Position numbers and translations under genes: made by a program. The notes beneath the pieces are model-generated. The model saw only the letters and a program-made list of their open reading frames with translations, was not told the origin of the DNA and did no database searches. Positions 45,154 through 60,773 of a stretch of 64,000 nucleotides of DNA are shown in pieces; positions within the stretch are counted from its first letter, which is position 1, and each line of letters opens with the position of its first letter. Location: positions 49,593 through 113,592 of the forward strand of contig JAJRPV010000014.1 of assembly GCA_024280575.1 (NCBI GenBank), written 5' to 3'. This stretch comes from Campylobacterales bacterium. GTDB lineage: Bacteria > Campylobacterota > Campylobacteria > Campylobacterales > Sulfurospirillaceae.

Positions 45154-46125
45154 CTACATCAAGCCTTTTTCATATTGAGCTCTTAGCTTTTCTTTTTCTA
45201 TTCTTCTTTTTTCTTTCTCTACTTGTTTTGTTTTATATTCTTTTAGACTGAAACCTAGCCACTTTAGCATAGGAGATGCTACAAATACAGAACTGTATGT
45301 TCCTACGATAATACCAACCAAAAGAGTAAAACTAAAACTATATATAATTTCTCCGCCTAGTAAAAAGAGCGTCAAAATAACAAAGAATGTCGTCAAAGAT
45401 GTCAAAATTGTTCTTGTAAGTGTTTTAGATACAGAATCATTGATAACATTAAAAAGATTCAAATCTTTTGTATCAACAATCCCTTCTCTGATTCTGTCAA
45501 ATACAATAATCGTATCATTCAAAGAGTAACCAAGTAGTGTTAGGAGTGCCGCTAACACATCAAGATTAAAATCTACCTGAAAAAGAGCAATTGCACCCAT
45601 GGCAATAGAAACATCATGTACTAATGCTAAAACAGATGCCAATGCAAATCGCCACTCAAATCTAAAAGCTACATATATAAGAATTGCTAAAATAGACATA
45701 ACCATAGCCATGATTCCCTTCTCTCGAAGCTCACCACCTACTTTTGGACCGACTATGTCAACTCTTCTTATCTTAAAATTTCCTGTACCTTTTAAAAGTC
45801 TTTTTATCTTATCGCCTGCATCTGTGCTGACATTTCCACTTGTTTTAGCAAAACGAATTATAATTTCATCGGGTGAACCAAACTCAGTAATAGAGGCATT
45901 TGCAAATTCTTTTTCCTTACTAATATGCTCTCGTATAGCTTTTATAGGGGCTTTTTTGTCATATTTTACCTGAACAACCGTTCCGCCAGAAAAATCTATA
46001 CCATAATTTAAACCTTTTGTATATAAAAAGAAGTATGAAGCCAATATCAAAATAATTGAAATTGATATAAAAAAATTACTTTTACCCATAAAATCATAGG
46101 TTTTATCTTTTGAAAATATTTGCAT
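45154..46125 (-). CDS. secF: Protein translocase subunit SecF
   Basis: GIDFSGG, VGPKVG.EL, GYSLNDTIIVFDRIRE. Confidence 0.97.
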   Translation of the reverse strand: MQIFSKDKTYDFMGKSNFFISISIILILASYFFLYTKGLNYGIDFSGGTVVQVKYDKKAPIKAIREHISKEKEFANASITEFGSPDEIIIRFAKTSGNVSTDAGDKIKRLLKGTGNFKIRRVDIVGPKVGGELREKGIMAMVMSILAILIYVAFRFEWRFALASVLALVHDVSIAMGAIALFQVDFNLDVLAALLTLLGYSLNDTIIVFDRIREGIVDTKDLNLFNVINDSVSKTLTRTILTSLTTFFVILTLFLLGGEIIYSFSFTLLVGIIVGTYSSVFVASPMLKWLGFSLKEYKTKQVEKEKRRIEKEKLRAQYEKGLM

Positions 46126-47705
46126 TATTTACCTCTCTTTACGCCAAACCAAAATGACAATCGTTTGCTTCTTTCGATATAAGGCATAATCCATTGATAG
46201 ATTCCATGTGTTCCCAATATCGCTGTTAACATTGAGGCTAAAATACCGATACTCATGGTAACTGCAAAACCTTTAATCGGTCCTGTACCATAGGCATATA
46301 GAACAACTGCTGCTATCAGCGTTGTGATATTTGCATCCAAGATGGCGCTCATAGCATTTGCATAACCTTTTTCTACTGCCTGTGCCACGGTTTTTCCTTC
46401 TCTAAATAGCTCTCTTATCCGTTCATTTATAATAACATTGGCATCAACTGCCATACCAACCGTCAGAACGATTCCAGCCATACCAGGCAAGGTCAATGTT
46501 GCTCCAAACAGAGCCATAATGGAAATAACCAAAAATAGGTTTACAAGTAGCGCTATATCTGCAATCAAACCAGCCATACCATAGTATAAAATCATAAAGA
46601 CAAATACTAAAACAAATCCCGTGATTAATGCCAACATACTAGCTTTAATACTATCAGCTCCCAAGCTCGGTCCTACACTTCTTTGTTCAAGTAACTTAAC
46701 CGGAGCCAATAGTGCGCCACTTCTTAATGCAATTGCTACATCATGAGCTTCTTTTACCGTAAAACCACCACTTATCTGACCACTTCCTCCGCCAATTCTC
46801 TCTCTTATGACCGGAGCTGAATAGACTTTATTGTCAAGTACGATCGCTAAGTGATTTCCAACATTTTTAGCTGTATAGTCTCCAAATATTTTAGCCCCTT
46901 CACTGTTTAGCGTAAAGTTAATAACAGGCTGATTCATATTGCTAAAGCCGACTTTTGCATCTGTTAGCATACTGCCATCCAAAATAGGAACACTTTTTAC
47001 GATATATTTTACATTTGGTGTTTTGGAATCCGGTAAAATCACATCCCCATAACTCGCAGCTTCGTCCTCACTCATAGTGTTTGCCTGATCTGCTCTTTTT
47101 TCATCTATCGACATCAGTTGGAGGTGTGCCGCTTTTGCTATAAGTTCTCTTGCTCTTTTTTCCTACTCAATAGTTTTAATACCCGGCAATTCAACAAGTA
47201 TCTTGTCTTTTCCTTGTTTTGCAACATTTGGCTCACTGAGACCAAATTGATCAAGTCTGTTTCTAATAGTTTCAACTGCTTGCGATACAGCAAATTTCTT
47301 AGTAGCAATTTTTTCTTTATCACTTAAGCTCAGAGTATAAGAAAGTTTATTTTTCTTGACTTGAACACCTGGTATTTTTTTAATCATGGCATCAAGATTT
47401 TTCTCTTCATCACCGTCTAAAAGTGTAAAAGTAACCAAGTCATCTTTCACCCTTAATTCATCAATAACTATGTCGTTATTATCTGTAAAAAATTTTATGC
47501 TTGAAGCGATTGATTTCATCTTTGATTTTATTGCTTCATCAGTCTTCACACCTAGAAGCATATGCAAGCCACCTTGAAGATCAAGCCCTAAGGATATCTT
47601 TGCACCTTTATCGGTTTGCAAAAAGGTTGGCAAGGAAAAGCCAACCCCAAATATAATCGCAATGAAAAAAATCACCAAGCGGTAATTTAATCCACCCTTA
47701 CTCAT
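46125..47705 (-). pseudogene. secD: Protein translocase subunit SecD with in-frame TAG at 47163-47165
   Basis: [58 protein letters not shown]. Confidence 0.92.
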
Positions 47706-47983: not shown

Positions 47984-49207
47984 GTAAAAATTTTAAGAGA
48001 TTATTTTACCATTTCTTACATAATAAAAGCCTTTGTTATTGCTTTTTGTTTATCTATTTTTATATATCTTGAATATTTTCATATTTCATCAAAGATTTTG
48101 AACTCTATTTTTCCTATTTTAGGGTTTTATCTACTTTTGAAAGCAAATAAATATGAGTTTTTTTGGAGTGGTTTTTTCATAGGAATTTTTTGGTTCTATT
48201 GGATTAGCCTTAGTTTTAGATACTATGATTTAAGTTTTCTTATCCCTTTTGTGATCTTTGGAATTGCCCTTATTTATGGATTGATTTTTAGAATTATTGC
48301 ATTTTTTGACAATATCTATGCAAGAGTTGTTTTAATTTTTTCTCTTAGTTTCATCTCTCCTTTTGGGTTTAACTGGTTAAAACTTGAACTTAGTTTAATC
48401 AATAGCTATTTTAATATGCAAATTATATTTTATGCTCTGTTTTTAATTGGAATTGCGGTGCTTGTAAAACTTCCAAAATGGCATAAGATGTTTTCTCTTC
48501 TTCTTTTTGTTACTTGTTTATATCATCCTGCATATAAAAGAGATAAAATTCCTCTACATGTAAAGATTGTCAAAACAAATACCAATCAAGATAATAAGTG
48601 GAACCCAAAATATGAAAAAAAACTCGTGAAAGAGAATTTCGATTATATTATTGATGCAATTGATAAAAGATATGACTTGGTTATACTTCCTGAGAGTGTA
48701 TTCCCACAATACTTAAATCTGCATATTGATGAAATTGCTGAGTTAAAAAAGTTATCCAAAAAAATCAATATTGTAGCCGGAGGCTTAACTTATGAAAATC
48801 ATAAAATATACAACTCGTCCTATTTTTTCAGTGATGGAAATATGCAAATAGCCCACAAAGTTACTTTGGTTCCATTTGGTGAAGAGATACCATTGCCTGG
48901 TTTTTTAAACAAATTTATAAATAAAATATTTTTTAACTCTGCAACTGACTATTCAAGAGCAAAAACTCCATATGATTTCGACATAAAAGGTATAAAATTC
49001 AGAAGTGCAGTATGCTTTGAAGCCACAACAGACAAACTATTTGAAAACCATCCCAAATATATGATAGCCATCAGTAATAATGCTTGGTTCAAACCGTCAA
49101 TCGAACCGACACTTCAGCATTTGCTCTTAAAATTGTATGCAAAAAAATACAACACTGTGATATTGCACAGTGCAAATGGAGGAATCAGTGGTATCATCAA
49201 ACCGTAG
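47984..49207 (+). CDS. lnt: Apolipoprotein N-acyltransferase (start uncertain)
   Basis: Multi-TM N-terminus, LPES, HKVTLVPFGE, VCFE, SNNAWF nitrilase-fold motifs. Confidence 0.9.
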   Translation, partial: VKILRDYFTISYIIKAFVIAFCLSIFIYLEYFHISSKILNSIFPILGFYLLLKANKYEFFWSGFFIGIFWFYWISLSFRYYDLSFLIPFVIFGIALIYGLIFRIIAFFDNIYARVVLIFSLSFISPFGFNWLKLELSLINSYFNMQIIFYALFLIGIAVLVKLPKWHKMFSLLLFVTCLYHPAYKRDKIPLHVKIVKTNTNQDNKWNPKYEKKLVKENFDYIIDAIDKRYDLVILPESVFPQYLNLHIDEIAELKKLSKKINIVAGGLTYENHKIYNSSYFFSDGNMQIAHKVTLVPFGEEIPLPGFLNKFINKIFFNSATDYSRAKTPYDFDIKGIKFRSAVCFEATTDKLFENHPKYMIAISNNAWFKPSIEPTLQHLLLKLYAKKYNTVILHSANGGISGIIKP

Positions 49208-49733
49208 TTTGTTTTATTTTTCCAAAGAGTTTTTTTAGGCACTCCTGCTTAAAACTTACCATCGGAGTTTTCTTGGCATATTCTATATAATCAAGTCCGA
49301 ATTTTTTTCTCACTTCCCACTCTTCAAAAATGATAACCATAAAAATGATAAATAACATTTCAAGCGGAGCGATAAAAGAGATAAAAGTAGGTGAACCTAT
49401 TATCAGAGCTGTTCCTAGAGGTAAAAGAGTTAGTCCAAAAAGCATGGGATGTCTCATACAACTGTAAATTCCCGTACTTACAAGATGGTTGGTTTCGAGT
49501 CTCGGAATATCTCCAACTCGTCCTTTTTTTAGTTCTAGTCCGCCATTTGCGGCAGATCTAAAAGCAAAAACAAGTATAAAATATCCCAAAATAAGACTGA
49601 TTATATGAAAAGTATAACTATGCCACAAAGGGCTGTTCAAATCTCTAACTATTCCAAATATCGCGCCACCAGCGAGTAAAAATACCCAAAGCAAAATGCG
49701 TATGACAACTGAAACAGAAGTTTTTATTTTCAT
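49197..49733 (-). CDS. ICMT/PEMT-family membrane methyltransferase
   Basis: GIYSCMRHPM, EE..V..KFG..Y..Y.K.TP. Confidence 0.8.
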   Translation of the reverse strand: MKIKTSVSVVIRILLWVFLLAGGAIFGIVRDLNSPLWHSYTFHIISLILGYFILVFAFRSAANGGLELKKGRVGDIPRLETNHLVSTGIYSCMRHPMLFGLTLLPLGTALIIGSPTFISFIAPLEMLFIIFMVIIFEEWEVRKKFGLDYIEYAKKTPMVSFKQECLKKLFGKIKQTTV

Positions 49734-49752: not shown

Positions 49753-50964
49753 TTATATTAAAGCCTCGAAAAGCTCTACTGCGTCTAATTTTTCCCACGG
49801 ATAATCACTTTGTCCGACTTGTCCTCGTGCTGCTACATCAGCATATAAGAAAGTTTCACGGCTTGGTTTATCTAGTCCAAATTTTTTTGTTATCCATCTA
49901 GGTGTCAGGCTAAAAGTGTTAATCACAAAATTTGACAGCACATCATCACTTACACTGACATTTGTACCAAAGGTATCAACACTGATTGAGAGTGGTTTTG
50001 CCACTCCAATCGCATAAGAGAGTTGTACTGAGCATTTTTTAGCCAATCCGCTTGCTATTATATTTTTTGCCAGCCATCGAGCTGCATAAAGACCGCTTCT
50101 GTCAACTTTTGTATAATCTTTACTACTTTGTGCACCCCCACCAATGGGTGAATATCCGCCAAAACTATCTACTATTAGTTTTCGCCCCGTCAGTCCCGAA
50201 TCATGCAAAGGACTGTGATTTACATATCTGCCTGTCGGATTTAGATGCAAGATCGTATTTTCCGGATCATACAGTCTTGGAGGAAGCCCCGTATCGTCTA
50301 TTAAGCCTTTCAAAAGCTCTCTCACCTCTTCTATGGGCATATCTTCAACTGATGGAGCTGAAACTACTATAGTATGAATTTTTTGGGGAAGGCAATTTTC
50401 AAAATTTTCTTTTGTACCATAATCCATAGTCACTTGAGTTTTTATATCAACTCCTAGTTTTTGGTTGTGATTTAGTGCATAATTATAAACTTTATCGCAA
50501 ATCATCCTCGCATAAGTGATGGCCGAGGGCATAAAATCCGCTGTTTCATTTGTGGCAAAACCAAACATAATTCCCTGATCGCCTGCTCCAATTTCTCCGG
50601 TTTCTTGATCAACTCCTTGAGATATGTCACTTGATTGTCTGTTTAACAGAACTTGAATTTTAACATCATCAGGATGCAGGCATTGCTCTCTTGTGAAGGC
50701 AGATTTTCCATCATATCCTATCTTAATAAGAGCATTTTTTACTATATCTTCATAATCTTCTATGTCCAAATTAGCTGAAGTTTTGACTTCACCGCCTATA
50801 ATGATATTTTTGCCCGCTACAAATACTTCACTAGCAACTCTTGAGTTGGGATCAGCGATAATCAAAGCATCTACAATGCTGTCTGCTATGATATCGGCAC
50901 ATTTATCCGGATGTCCGGGGCTTACTACTTCACTTGTAAAAAGGTATTGTGGTGTGTTTTCCAT
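49753..50964 (-). CDS. metK: S-adenosylmethionine synthetase
   Basis: FTSEVVSPGHPDK, GAGDQG, DSGLTGRK, GGGAQSSKD. Confidence 0.98.
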   Translation of the reverse strand: MENTPQYLFTSEVVSPGHPDKCADIIADSIVDALIIADPNSRVASEVFVAGKNIIIGGEVKTSANLDIEDYEDIVKNALIKIGYDGKSAFTREQCLHPDDVKIQVLLNRQSSDISQGVDQETGEIGAGDQGIMFGFATNETADFMPSAITYARMICDKVYNYALNHNQKLGVDIKTQVTMDYGTKENFENCLPQKIHTIVVSAPSVEDMPIEEVRELLKGLIDDTGLPPRLYDPENTILHLNPTGRYVNHSPLHDSGLTGRKLIVDSFGGYSPIGGGAQSSKDYTKVDRSGLYAARWLAKNIIASGLAKKCSVQLSYAIGVAKPLSISVDTFGTNVSVSDDVLSNFVINTFSLTPRWITKKFGLDKPSRETFLYADVAARGQVGQSDYPWEKLDAVELFEALI

Positions 50965-51035
50965 TTTTGTTTTCCATTTCTTTGTTTTCCATAAGAGATG
51001 AACTCTTAATTGTTTTCCATCCTTTTGTTTTCCAT
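50955..51035 (-). repeat. Five perfect copies of ATGGAAAACA in the metK leader, the last being the metK start
   Basis: ATG positions (minus strand) 51035, 51020, 50992, 50977, 50964; hairpin TAAGAG-ATGAA-CTCTTA at 50992-51008. Confidence 0.9.
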
Positions 51036-51183
51036 TTTCTTTGAAGAGGTGTTAACCTAAAAAATAAAATTAAAAAGTTTGAATTGAGGCAATCTTTGCC
51101 CACCATTACTTATAAACCGTTGGGAATTATACAGTTTTAATATAAATAAATATTTAATTTACCCTATTTTGATAAAATAGGGT

Positions 51184-51624
51184 ATGAAACAAAAATTTTA
51201 CTCGTATTTATTAGTATCGTTACAATATATTTTTATGGCTGTGCTTTTATATTTAAATAAACACTATCTTTTGCAAATCGTACCATTTAGCATATTTATT
51301 ATCGGTTTTATCATTGGTATTTATGCAATATATAACAACGAGCTGCATAATTTCAATATTATTCCCGAGATAAAAGATGGCGCATCTTTAGTAACGCATG
51401 GCATATACAAATACATAAGACATCCTATGTATTTTTCTGTGGCTCTCATGATGTTTGGAGTTATTGTTTACAATATAAATATAAGCAATATTTTCATATA
51501 TTTACTACTGATTTTAGTTATTGTTTTAAAAGCTAAAAAAGAAGAAGCACTTTGGAGTCAAATATCTTCTCAATACAGCATTTACAAGCAAAAAACAAAA
51601 ATGATAATTCCTTGCATTCTATAA
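51184..51624 (+). CDS. ICMT/PEMT-family membrane methyltransferase
   Basis: LVTHGIYKYIRHPMY, EEALW...YK.KTK..IP. Confidence 0.8.
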   Translation: MKQKFYSYLLVSLQYIFMAVLLYLNKHYLLQIVPFSIFIIGFIIGIYAIYNNELHNFNIIPEIKDGASLVTHGIYKYIRHPMYFSVALMMFGVIVYNINISNIFIYLLLILVIVLKAKKEEALWSQISSQYSIYKQKTKMIIPCIL

Positions 51625-60546: not shown

Positions 60547-60773
60547 TTTTTAAGTTTTTCGCTAAGAGAACTCAAATCTTCAAAGCTTGCACTTTTTACA
60601 GCTTTTATATTCATATCTTTAACTGCTTCTTCCAACTCTTTTCTCAAAATCAACATCTCTTTTGGAGCGTCAATTCCAATTCTCACCATACCCTTTGAAA
60701 TATCCATAACCTTTATAGTTATTTTGTCATCCAAAAGTATAGATTCCCCTACTTTTCTTGATAATACTAGCAC
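60543..60773 (-). CDS. csrA: Carbon storage regulator CsrA
   Basis: MLVLSRKVGESI, VRIGIDAPK...ILRKEL. Confidence 0.96.
   Translation of the reverse strand: MLVLSRKVGESILLDDKITIKVMDISKGMVRIGIDAPKEMLILRKELEEAVKDMNIKAVKSASFEDLSSLSEKLKK

Follow-up and report, generated by a model that had tools for sequence, protein, structure and literature searches.

Here we report a strongly conserved mRNA leader of metK, the gene for S-adenosylmethionine (SAM) synthetase, which is absent from Rfam, has not been described previously, and was found at metK only and in the families Sulfurospirillaceae and Arcobacteraceae only. The core of the leader is an array of two to six units of the form (A)UGGAAAAC(R)A, with almost pure-purine spacers between them. 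Very probably the leader is an element of RNA-level, metK-specific translational control; it is plausible, at slightly less than an even chance, that this largely unstructured 5′ leader, with the repeats at its core, acts on the mRNA when translation of metK is initiated and is read by a trans-acting factor. For this essential enzyme, modes of control are known from many bacteria and involve MetJ, the S-box and other SAM riboswitches, or the SMK box. A description of SAM-synthetase control in Campylobacterota was not found in the literature searched, nor, in literature outside subscription journals, was an account of any metK leader from Arcobacter or Sulfurospirillum.

The array was detected in a 64-kb stretch of DNA from a member of the Sulfurospirillaceae, referred to here in its full length as the window. 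Five exact copies of ATGGAAAACA are present on the minus strand, starting at positions 51035, 51020, 50992, 50977, and 50964; the expected number for the window is 0.51, and 0 of 100 shuffled sequences reached five. The whole genome contains 23 copies (17 for the reversed control), and a cluster of them is present at metK alone. The features of the leader and its gene are:

51126..51131, minus strand: predicted -10 box of the metK promoter (TATAAT, with TG before it), read from the sequence
near 51119, minus strand: predicted metK transcription start site
51087..51104, minus strand: 5′ element, in which a conserved GGYG precedes hairpin P1 (arms 51101-51096 and 51092-51087)
51056..51083, minus strand: UUCAAAC and U-rich tract (UUCAAACUUUUUAAUUUUAUUUUUU), kept in both families
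51026..51035, minus strand: repeat unit r1 (AUGGAAAACA), exact repeat copy
51011..51020, minus strand: repeat unit r2, exact repeat copy
50992..51008, minus strand: hairpin P2 between r2 and r3, 6 bp with a 5-nt loop, supported by covariation
50983..50992, minus strand: repeat unit r3, whose AUG is not kept in relatives (AU directly after the hairpin in 23/91 leaders)
50968..50977, minus strand: repeat unit r4, whose GGA is the likely metK Shine-Dalgarno (SD) sequence, 8 nt before the AUG
50955..50964, minus strand: repeat unit r5, which forms the beginning of metK (start codon and following codons, MEN)
49753..50964, minus strand: metK (SAM synthetase), 403 aa, homologs with 74-95% identity, conserved YLFTSEVVSPGHPDKCADI N-terminus

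The ORF at 49753-50964, which we take to be metK from its sequence, starts with MENTPQYLFTSEVVSPGHPDK. The five repeats, the 6-bp hairpin, two upstream ORFs, and the identity of the fifth repeat with the metK start had all been noted in a preliminary description of the window, and their coordinates were confirmed. The first of the upstream ORFs, uORF1 (51035-51006, minus strand), encodes MENKRMENN* and ends with a TAA stop codon (51008-51006) inside the 5′ arm of P2. The two arms of this hairpin are 51008-51003 and 50997-50992, and the 3′ arm ends on the A of the ATG at 50992. The second, uORF2 (50992-50930, minus strand), overlaps metK out of frame. The spacer between r1 and r2 (AAAAGGAU) includes a canonical SD sequence (AAAGGA).

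Several other features of the region and the genome were recorded. Small membrane methyltransferase genes of the SAM-using PEMT/ICMT family flank metK on both sides (49197-49733, minus strand; 51184-51624, plus strand), and the downstream gene, which is co-directional with metK, may be co-transcribed with it. A perfect 10+10 palindrome (ACCCTATTTT-ATC-AAAATAGGGT, 51161-51183) immediately precedes the start codon (ATG, 51184) of the divergent PEMT/ICMT-like gene, about 30-50 bp upstream of the metK -10 box; it is partly retained in close relatives and could be an operator or a 5′-UTR hairpin. Elsewhere in the window, secD appears as two ORFs within 46125-47705 (minus strand), one comprising the N-terminal domain (47163-47705) and the other the P1 head and the C-terminal domain (46125-47114); the split could be a frameshift, an assembly error, or genuine. 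Outside the window, the same genome contains dense short-range repeat clusters (C35:~2400, C24:~0 / C38:~8400, C77:~3000, and C60:~7200), which, when the genome was roughly screened for 8-mers present three or more times, ranked higher than the metK array or close to it.

The leader was found before metK in 56 of 61 Sulfurospirillaceae and 119 of 121 Arcobacteraceae species genomes; searches of other Campylobacterales families did not detect it. A 24-mer spanning r3 and r4 (GGAAAACAAAGRAAUGGAAAACAA) occurs once per genome in 56 of the 61 genomes of the window's family; nearly every motif-bearing genome, from six Sulfurospirillaceae genera and with MetK identities down to 79%, carries it without a mismatch, a degree of conservation far greater than that of the coding sequence. 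An exact 22-mer scan of all GTDB species genomes yielded 72 loci, nearly all of them before metK, that are assigned to Sulfurospirillum/Sulfurospirillaceae and Arcobacter/Halarcobacter/Arcobacteraceae; two matches in Bacteroidales-type bins are unrelated sequence with no metK downstream. With a looser unit-pair pattern, matches were obtained in 119 of 121 Arcobacteraceae genomes, representing 22 of 22 genera, and were located at metK wherever the sequence was read. The same pattern was present in 36 of 38 and 38 of 39 genomes of the two families within a set of 401 Campylobacterales genomes from 26 families. Matches in other families proved, where opened, to be coding sequence or chance, those in a third family being aspartokinase coding sequence or one ordinary ribosome-binding site, and an apparent double array in one genome was a scaffold-gap duplicate.

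A covariance model built from 55 leaders gave exactly one significant match per genome. In the genome of the window, the match at metK scored 86.7 bits and the next best 26 bits (E about 0.1). Among 151 high-quality Campylobacterota genomes, the model detected the leader in 4 of 4 and 6 of 6 members of the two families and in 0 of 53 and 0 of 60 members of the two largest other families. No metK neighbour gene is conserved across the array-bearing genera. In the genome-wide and relatives' counts, which had been proposed at the outset as a check for a generic repeat, no similar arrays preceded unrelated genes, and the generic-repeat reading was not borne out. A regulon of a single gene is typical of autogenous or dedicated control.

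The anatomy of the array was analyzed in 92 distinct leaders. They contain 439 units, of which 426 read GGAAAAC and 13 GGACAAC, usually followed directly by RA. The spacers are 6-8 nt long, consist almost entirely of purines, and have AU at their end (e.g. AAAGAAAU, AAAAGGAU, AAAAAU, and AAAGGAU). The unit spacing varies between 13 and 16 nt. Where another unit sits 13-16 nt upstream, AU precedes the unit in 252 of 256 cases; before first copies it is found in 57 of 92 leaders (UU in 20), and directly after the hairpin in 23 of 91. The U alone precedes about 70% of the post-hairpin copies, and most first copies likewise have a U before the GG. Ribosome binding does not account for the invariant C of the units or for the U that flanks them. 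UUG and GUG never substitute for AUG at tandem positions, and UUG is common in first copies. In arrays that lack the hairpin, the third unit has no AUG despite a GGA at SD distance.

The relation of the array to the start codon is nearly constant. Between the last upstream GGA and the metK AUG, the distance is 8 nt in 63 of the 92 leaders and 7-9 nt in 89, and the last upstream unit is therefore taken as the metK SD sequence. Tandem AUGs follow the preceding GGA at 8-10 nt; the SD-AUG distances of the genome peak at 6-7 nt. The 3′ end of the 16S rRNA is ...CACCUCCUUUCU, and the spacers hold true SD matches to this tail, such as AAAGGA. As an SD heptamer, GGAAAAC is not favoured in this genome (7 cases vs 45 for GGAGAAA). 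Relative to metK, the upstream AUGs are distributed over all three frames (110/102/75), the stop codons and lengths of the uORFs are not conserved between genera, and conservation covers every nucleotide, including third codon positions.

In its general order, the leader consists of the -10 box, GGYG and P1, UUCAAAC and the U-rich tract, a variable stretch, two or three units, P2, another two or three units, and the metK AUG. P2 is 20-159 nt long, and every inter-repeat segment examined folds; at any length, the hairpin begins 2-3 nt past one unit and stops 0-2 nt short of the following one. Its pairing is supported by covariation (83.4% of cells paired vs 56.2% in shuffled alignments; score 0.738 vs 0.269; 0 of 500 shuffles as high), and slid controls score lower; of the two hairpins, these statistics cover P2 alone. 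A few Arcobacteraceae lineages lack P2 and have a 6-nt spacer instead. In this family, the short leader of one genus carries just two units and has neither P1 nor P2, and another genus has two hairpins. At the P1 position, Sulfurospirillaceae leaders have a hairpin with varied stems (GGGC/GCCU, GAGC/GCUC, GAACCC/GGGUUC, and GAGCGAU/AUCGCUU), and many of the Arcobacteraceae leaders examined, though not every one, have a comparable hairpin.

In the RNAalifold consensus, which contains no structure beyond P2, the units remain unpaired, and the fold of the whole leader is no more stable than that of shuffled sequences (z = -0.44). A role of the U-rich tract as a sequestor of the repeats was rejected, with duplex energies no better than those of shuffles (mean z about 0 in 102 leaders); pairing of the P2 5′ arm with UUCAAAC, or of a pyrimidine box with P2, was judged by eye and was inconsistent between genera. 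In 54 Sulfurospirillaceae leaders, a -10-like hexamer is mostly located 15-20 nt upstream of GGYG/P1, and the distance from the array to the -10 box varies widely across leaders. In two other Sulfurospirillaceae genera, the metK -10 box lies inside a palindrome, GAGTA-N3-TACTC, upstream of P1 (16 of the 54 leaders, e.g. L053, L058, L070, and L080), which may serve as an operator where a DNA-binding regulator adds to the effect of the RNA element.

A partner of the array was searched for among proteins and RNAs. CsrA (PF02599) was detected in 24 of 24 Sulfurospirillaceae genomes tested, and over the cut-off in 0 of 121 Arcobacteraceae genomes, 119 of which have the array, so it cannot be the common reader. 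In the window, csrA is located at 60618-60770 (minus strand), about 10 kb from metK, and the linkage is retained at 5-16 kb in relatives. As the two genes are also linked in a Campylobacter-like genome that has no array, their proximity looks like plain synteny. Hfq (PF17209), which an (ARN)n site would depend on, TRAP (PF02081), and MetJ (PF01340) were not found in five genomes; the controls worked, with TRAP positive in Bacillus subtilis and MetJ in Escherichia coli. Cold-shock proteins are patchy and are missing from complete genomes that have the array. No lineage-specific insertion in MetK distinguishes the array-bearing lineages.

The RNA searches were likewise negative. The Rfam scans matched no bacterial family, either with the leader of the window (E ≤ 10) or with nine diverse leaders (E ≤ 1). 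No covariance-model match to the known SAM riboswitches (SAM-I/IV, II/V, III/SMK, VI, and SAM-SAH) or to the T-box was obtained in the leaders scanned, and SAM-I had no match genome-wide in five genomes, with controls working; in the genome-wide SAM-II search, the controls were silent. The earlier statement that neither a SAM riboswitch nor a MetJ box is present thus agrees with the Rfam scans, the SAM-I search, and the MetJ search, none of which gave a match. Among those searched, the clade has no detectable SAM-responsive regulator of a described kind. A complement to the units, GUUUUC(C), is absent from the 16S and 23S rRNAs of both families and from the tRNAs and tmRNA of this genome. A complement was likewise found in neither the leader nor the metK mRNA, within which there is no conserved long-range pairing. 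The genome has about 20 lone GUUUUCC sites outside ORFs and no second GUUUUCC cluster of the kind expected for an antisense-type small RNA.

Taken at the level of the leader, these observations point to the mRNA. Action on RNA, not DNA, is indicated by the fixed distance of the array to the AUG and its variable distance to the -10 box; these distances, the strictly purine-rich strand, and an inserted element that is kept as a helix and not as a sequence all indicate action on the mRNA at initiation. Since the units are unpaired in the RNAalifold consensus and no complement was found, the motif appears to be presented as a single strand, and because P2 is flush with the units or replaced by a 6-nt spacer, the proximity of the units is preserved, as for a multivalent binder. 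The array overlaps the metK SD and start codon at a fixed distance from the AUG, as would be expected of a reiterated single-strand translational operator, a functional class and not a homologous family.

The arrangement, for which the name reiterated operator is used here, would work as follows. The 3′-most units are themselves the SD sequence and start codon of metK; a sequence-specific trans-acting factor would bind several units at once, and this binding would set the access of the 30S subunit to the genuine ribosome-binding site, with feedback on the supply of SAM or methionine as the outcome. The position of P2, flush between two units, would keep the units near each other in space at any length of the hairpin. 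The factor would be a protein that binds single-stranded RNA, for which MetK itself or a SAM-binding protein is conceivable; a small RNA is less likely. We infer the factor, its repression or activation of translation, and the SAM or methionine signal from sequence comparison. That a dedicated trans-acting factor reads the array is quite possible, if somewhat doubtful; tentatively, and with a little more reserve, we suggest that a new sequence-specific regulator binds the (A)UGGAAAAC(R)A units as single-stranded RNA and gates metK translation, thereby providing the SAM/methionine feedback of both families. Against a trans-acting factor count the lack of a candidate (Hfq and TRAP were not found in array-bearing genomes, nor CsrA in Arcobacteraceae, cold-shock proteins are patchy, MetK has no distinguishing insertion, and no neighbour gene is conserved), the AU at 252 of 256 tandem units, which forms AUGs that the ribosome alone could read, and the presence of only two units in some Arcobacteraceae.

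The main rival, which we consider rather unlikely, is an array that acts only in cis, as a series of reiterated ribosome-binding sites without a dedicated factor. The GGA of each unit would be the SD sequence for the AUG of the next, 30S subunits would load upstream and start tiny or out-of-frame ORFs on these decoy or standby starts, and the upstream loading would set the flow to the true metK AUG by competition or reinitiation; a response to methionine or SAM would run via initiator tRNA or the status of the ribosome. This possibility had already been raised as decoy starts that tune the output of MetK, and several observations agree with it: AU is almost invariable at tandem units and infrequent directly after the hairpin, the GGA-to-AUG distance of 8-10 nt falls at the long end of the range used in the genome, the 16S tail has true SD matches in the spacers, and a partner protein or RNA was not found. 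It leaves unexplained, however, why AAAAC, and especially its C, is invariant in 439 units and why a U is kept before first and post-hairpin copies, which have no SD upstream. GGAAAAC is also not a favoured SD context, UUG and GUG never replace the tandem AUG even though UUG is common in first copies, and the third unit of hairpin-less arrays lacks an AUG in spite of a GGA at SD distance. Moreover, out-of-frame AUGs 13 nt before the true start would be costly.

Four further readings are much less probable. A new SAM or methionine riboswitch, with an aptamer formed by P1, the U-rich tract, the purine repeats, and P2, for instance through a triplex or other non-canonical contacts, would suit a metK-only leader with two hairpins (P2 tested by covariation, P1 with varied stems) and highly conserved unpaired stretches, in a clade where the known SAM riboswitch classes were not detected. 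We regard it as improbable: the array is kept in lineages without P2, some of them also without the P1/U-rich domain, its units number anywhere from two to six, no consensus structure is predicted beyond P2, and neither the complementarity of the U-rich tract to the repeats nor the leader fold differs from shuffles. It is very improbable that the array is a DNA-level operator, at which a transcription factor would bind the tandem direct repeats in the manner of MetJ on metboxes; such repeats do follow the promoter of a met gene and precede its start codon, but their distance is fixed to the AUG and varies widely to the -10 box, one strand is strictly purine-rich, the insert is kept as a base-paired hairpin and not as a sequence, and MetJ was not found. 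Still less can be said for an array of CsrA sites, A(N)GGA, bridged by dimers that block the metK SD sequence. Each unit contains AUGGA, the r1-r2 junction (ACAAAAGGAUGG) resembles the CsrA SELEX consensus, and the protein is encoded in all 24 Sulfurospirillaceae tested and, in the window, not far from metK; but conservation extends well past GGA over the whole of (A)UGGAAAAC(R)A, the GGAs are not in hairpin loops, and 119 of 121 Arcobacteraceae have the array and none has CsrA over the cut-off. A CsrA-binding array, as put forward in the preliminary description, therefore fails as a general mechanism, and at most CsrA could be a secondary user in Sulfurospirillaceae. Scarcely credible, finally, is a leader-peptide sensor, in which Met-rich peptides such as MENKRMENN would stall ribosomes in response to methionine or SAM. 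AUG-started mini-ORFs are present in the window, but a spacing of 13-16 nt shifts the frame and keeps no reading frame, which excludes a sensing peptide; the AUGs occupy all three frames, uORF lengths and stops differ between genera, and conservation is found at every nucleotide. Of the original proposal of a methionine- or SAM-sensing leader, the translation-level and metK-specific part has thus held up (AUG distance in 89/92 leaders; metK only), and the Met-rich uORFs have not.

The leader is conserved in about 175 species genomes of two families, which include the emerging food-borne Arcobacter and the dehalorespiring Sulfurospirillum. Being unique to metK, outside Rfam, and in agreement with no known reader, it poses the concrete question of how SAM is sensed in these bacteria. 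Should a new RNA-binding regulator or an autoregulating MetK prove to read the reiterated operator, a further type of metabolite feedback would be added to those known; an array that works via ribosomes alone would be an exceptionally clear natural example of decoy ribosome-binding sites in reiterated form.

Among known systems, the SMK box (SAM-III) riboswitch of Lactobacillales metK is likewise a metK-only leader that involves the SD region at translation initiation. In the SMK box, however, a folded aptamer brings SD and anti-SD sequences into pairing around SAM, whereas the metK array has no Rfam match, no conserved fold around the SD sequence, and a variable number of units. The target leaders and sponge RNAs of CsrA/RsmA resemble the array in having several GGA motifs, one of which overlaps the SD sequence, and there a dimer bridges the sites; the metK motif differs in comprising 8-10 nt instead of GGA, in not being placed in loops, and in its occurrence in Arcobacteraceae without detected CsrA. 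In vertebrates, the hairpin array in the MAT2A 3′UTR that is read by METTL16 is also a reiterated conserved RNA motif on a SAM-synthetase mRNA with feedback by SAM; it is a conceptual analogue only, being eukaryotic, composed of structured 3′UTR hairpins, involved in the control of splicing and stability, and not homologous.

The (G/U)AG arrays of TRAP in Bacillus trp leaders and at the ribosome-binding sites of trpG and trpP share with the metK array a reiterated short single-stranded motif, variable spacers, and overlap with the ribosome-binding site. In the TRAP system, an oligomeric protein reads the repeats and provides end-product feedback; for the metK array, such a reader is a proposal from the sequence, and motif, taxon, and period (13-16 nt vs 5) differ, as does the gene content, TRAP not having been found. 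The metbox operators of MetJ in Enterobacteria, including that of metK, are tandem repeats before methionine and SAM genes, with 2-5 copies in metboxes. Yet a metbox is an 8-bp DNA site positioned by the promoter, whereas the features of the metK array point to RNA, and MetJ was not found. Upstream decoy starts and uORF leaders, finally, have SD-AUG modules that precede the main start in a different frame, as does the metK array. In contrast to such leaders, the array keeps neither a peptide nor a reading frame; what it keeps are identical modules, repeated two to six times and retained nucleotide for nucleotide in two families.
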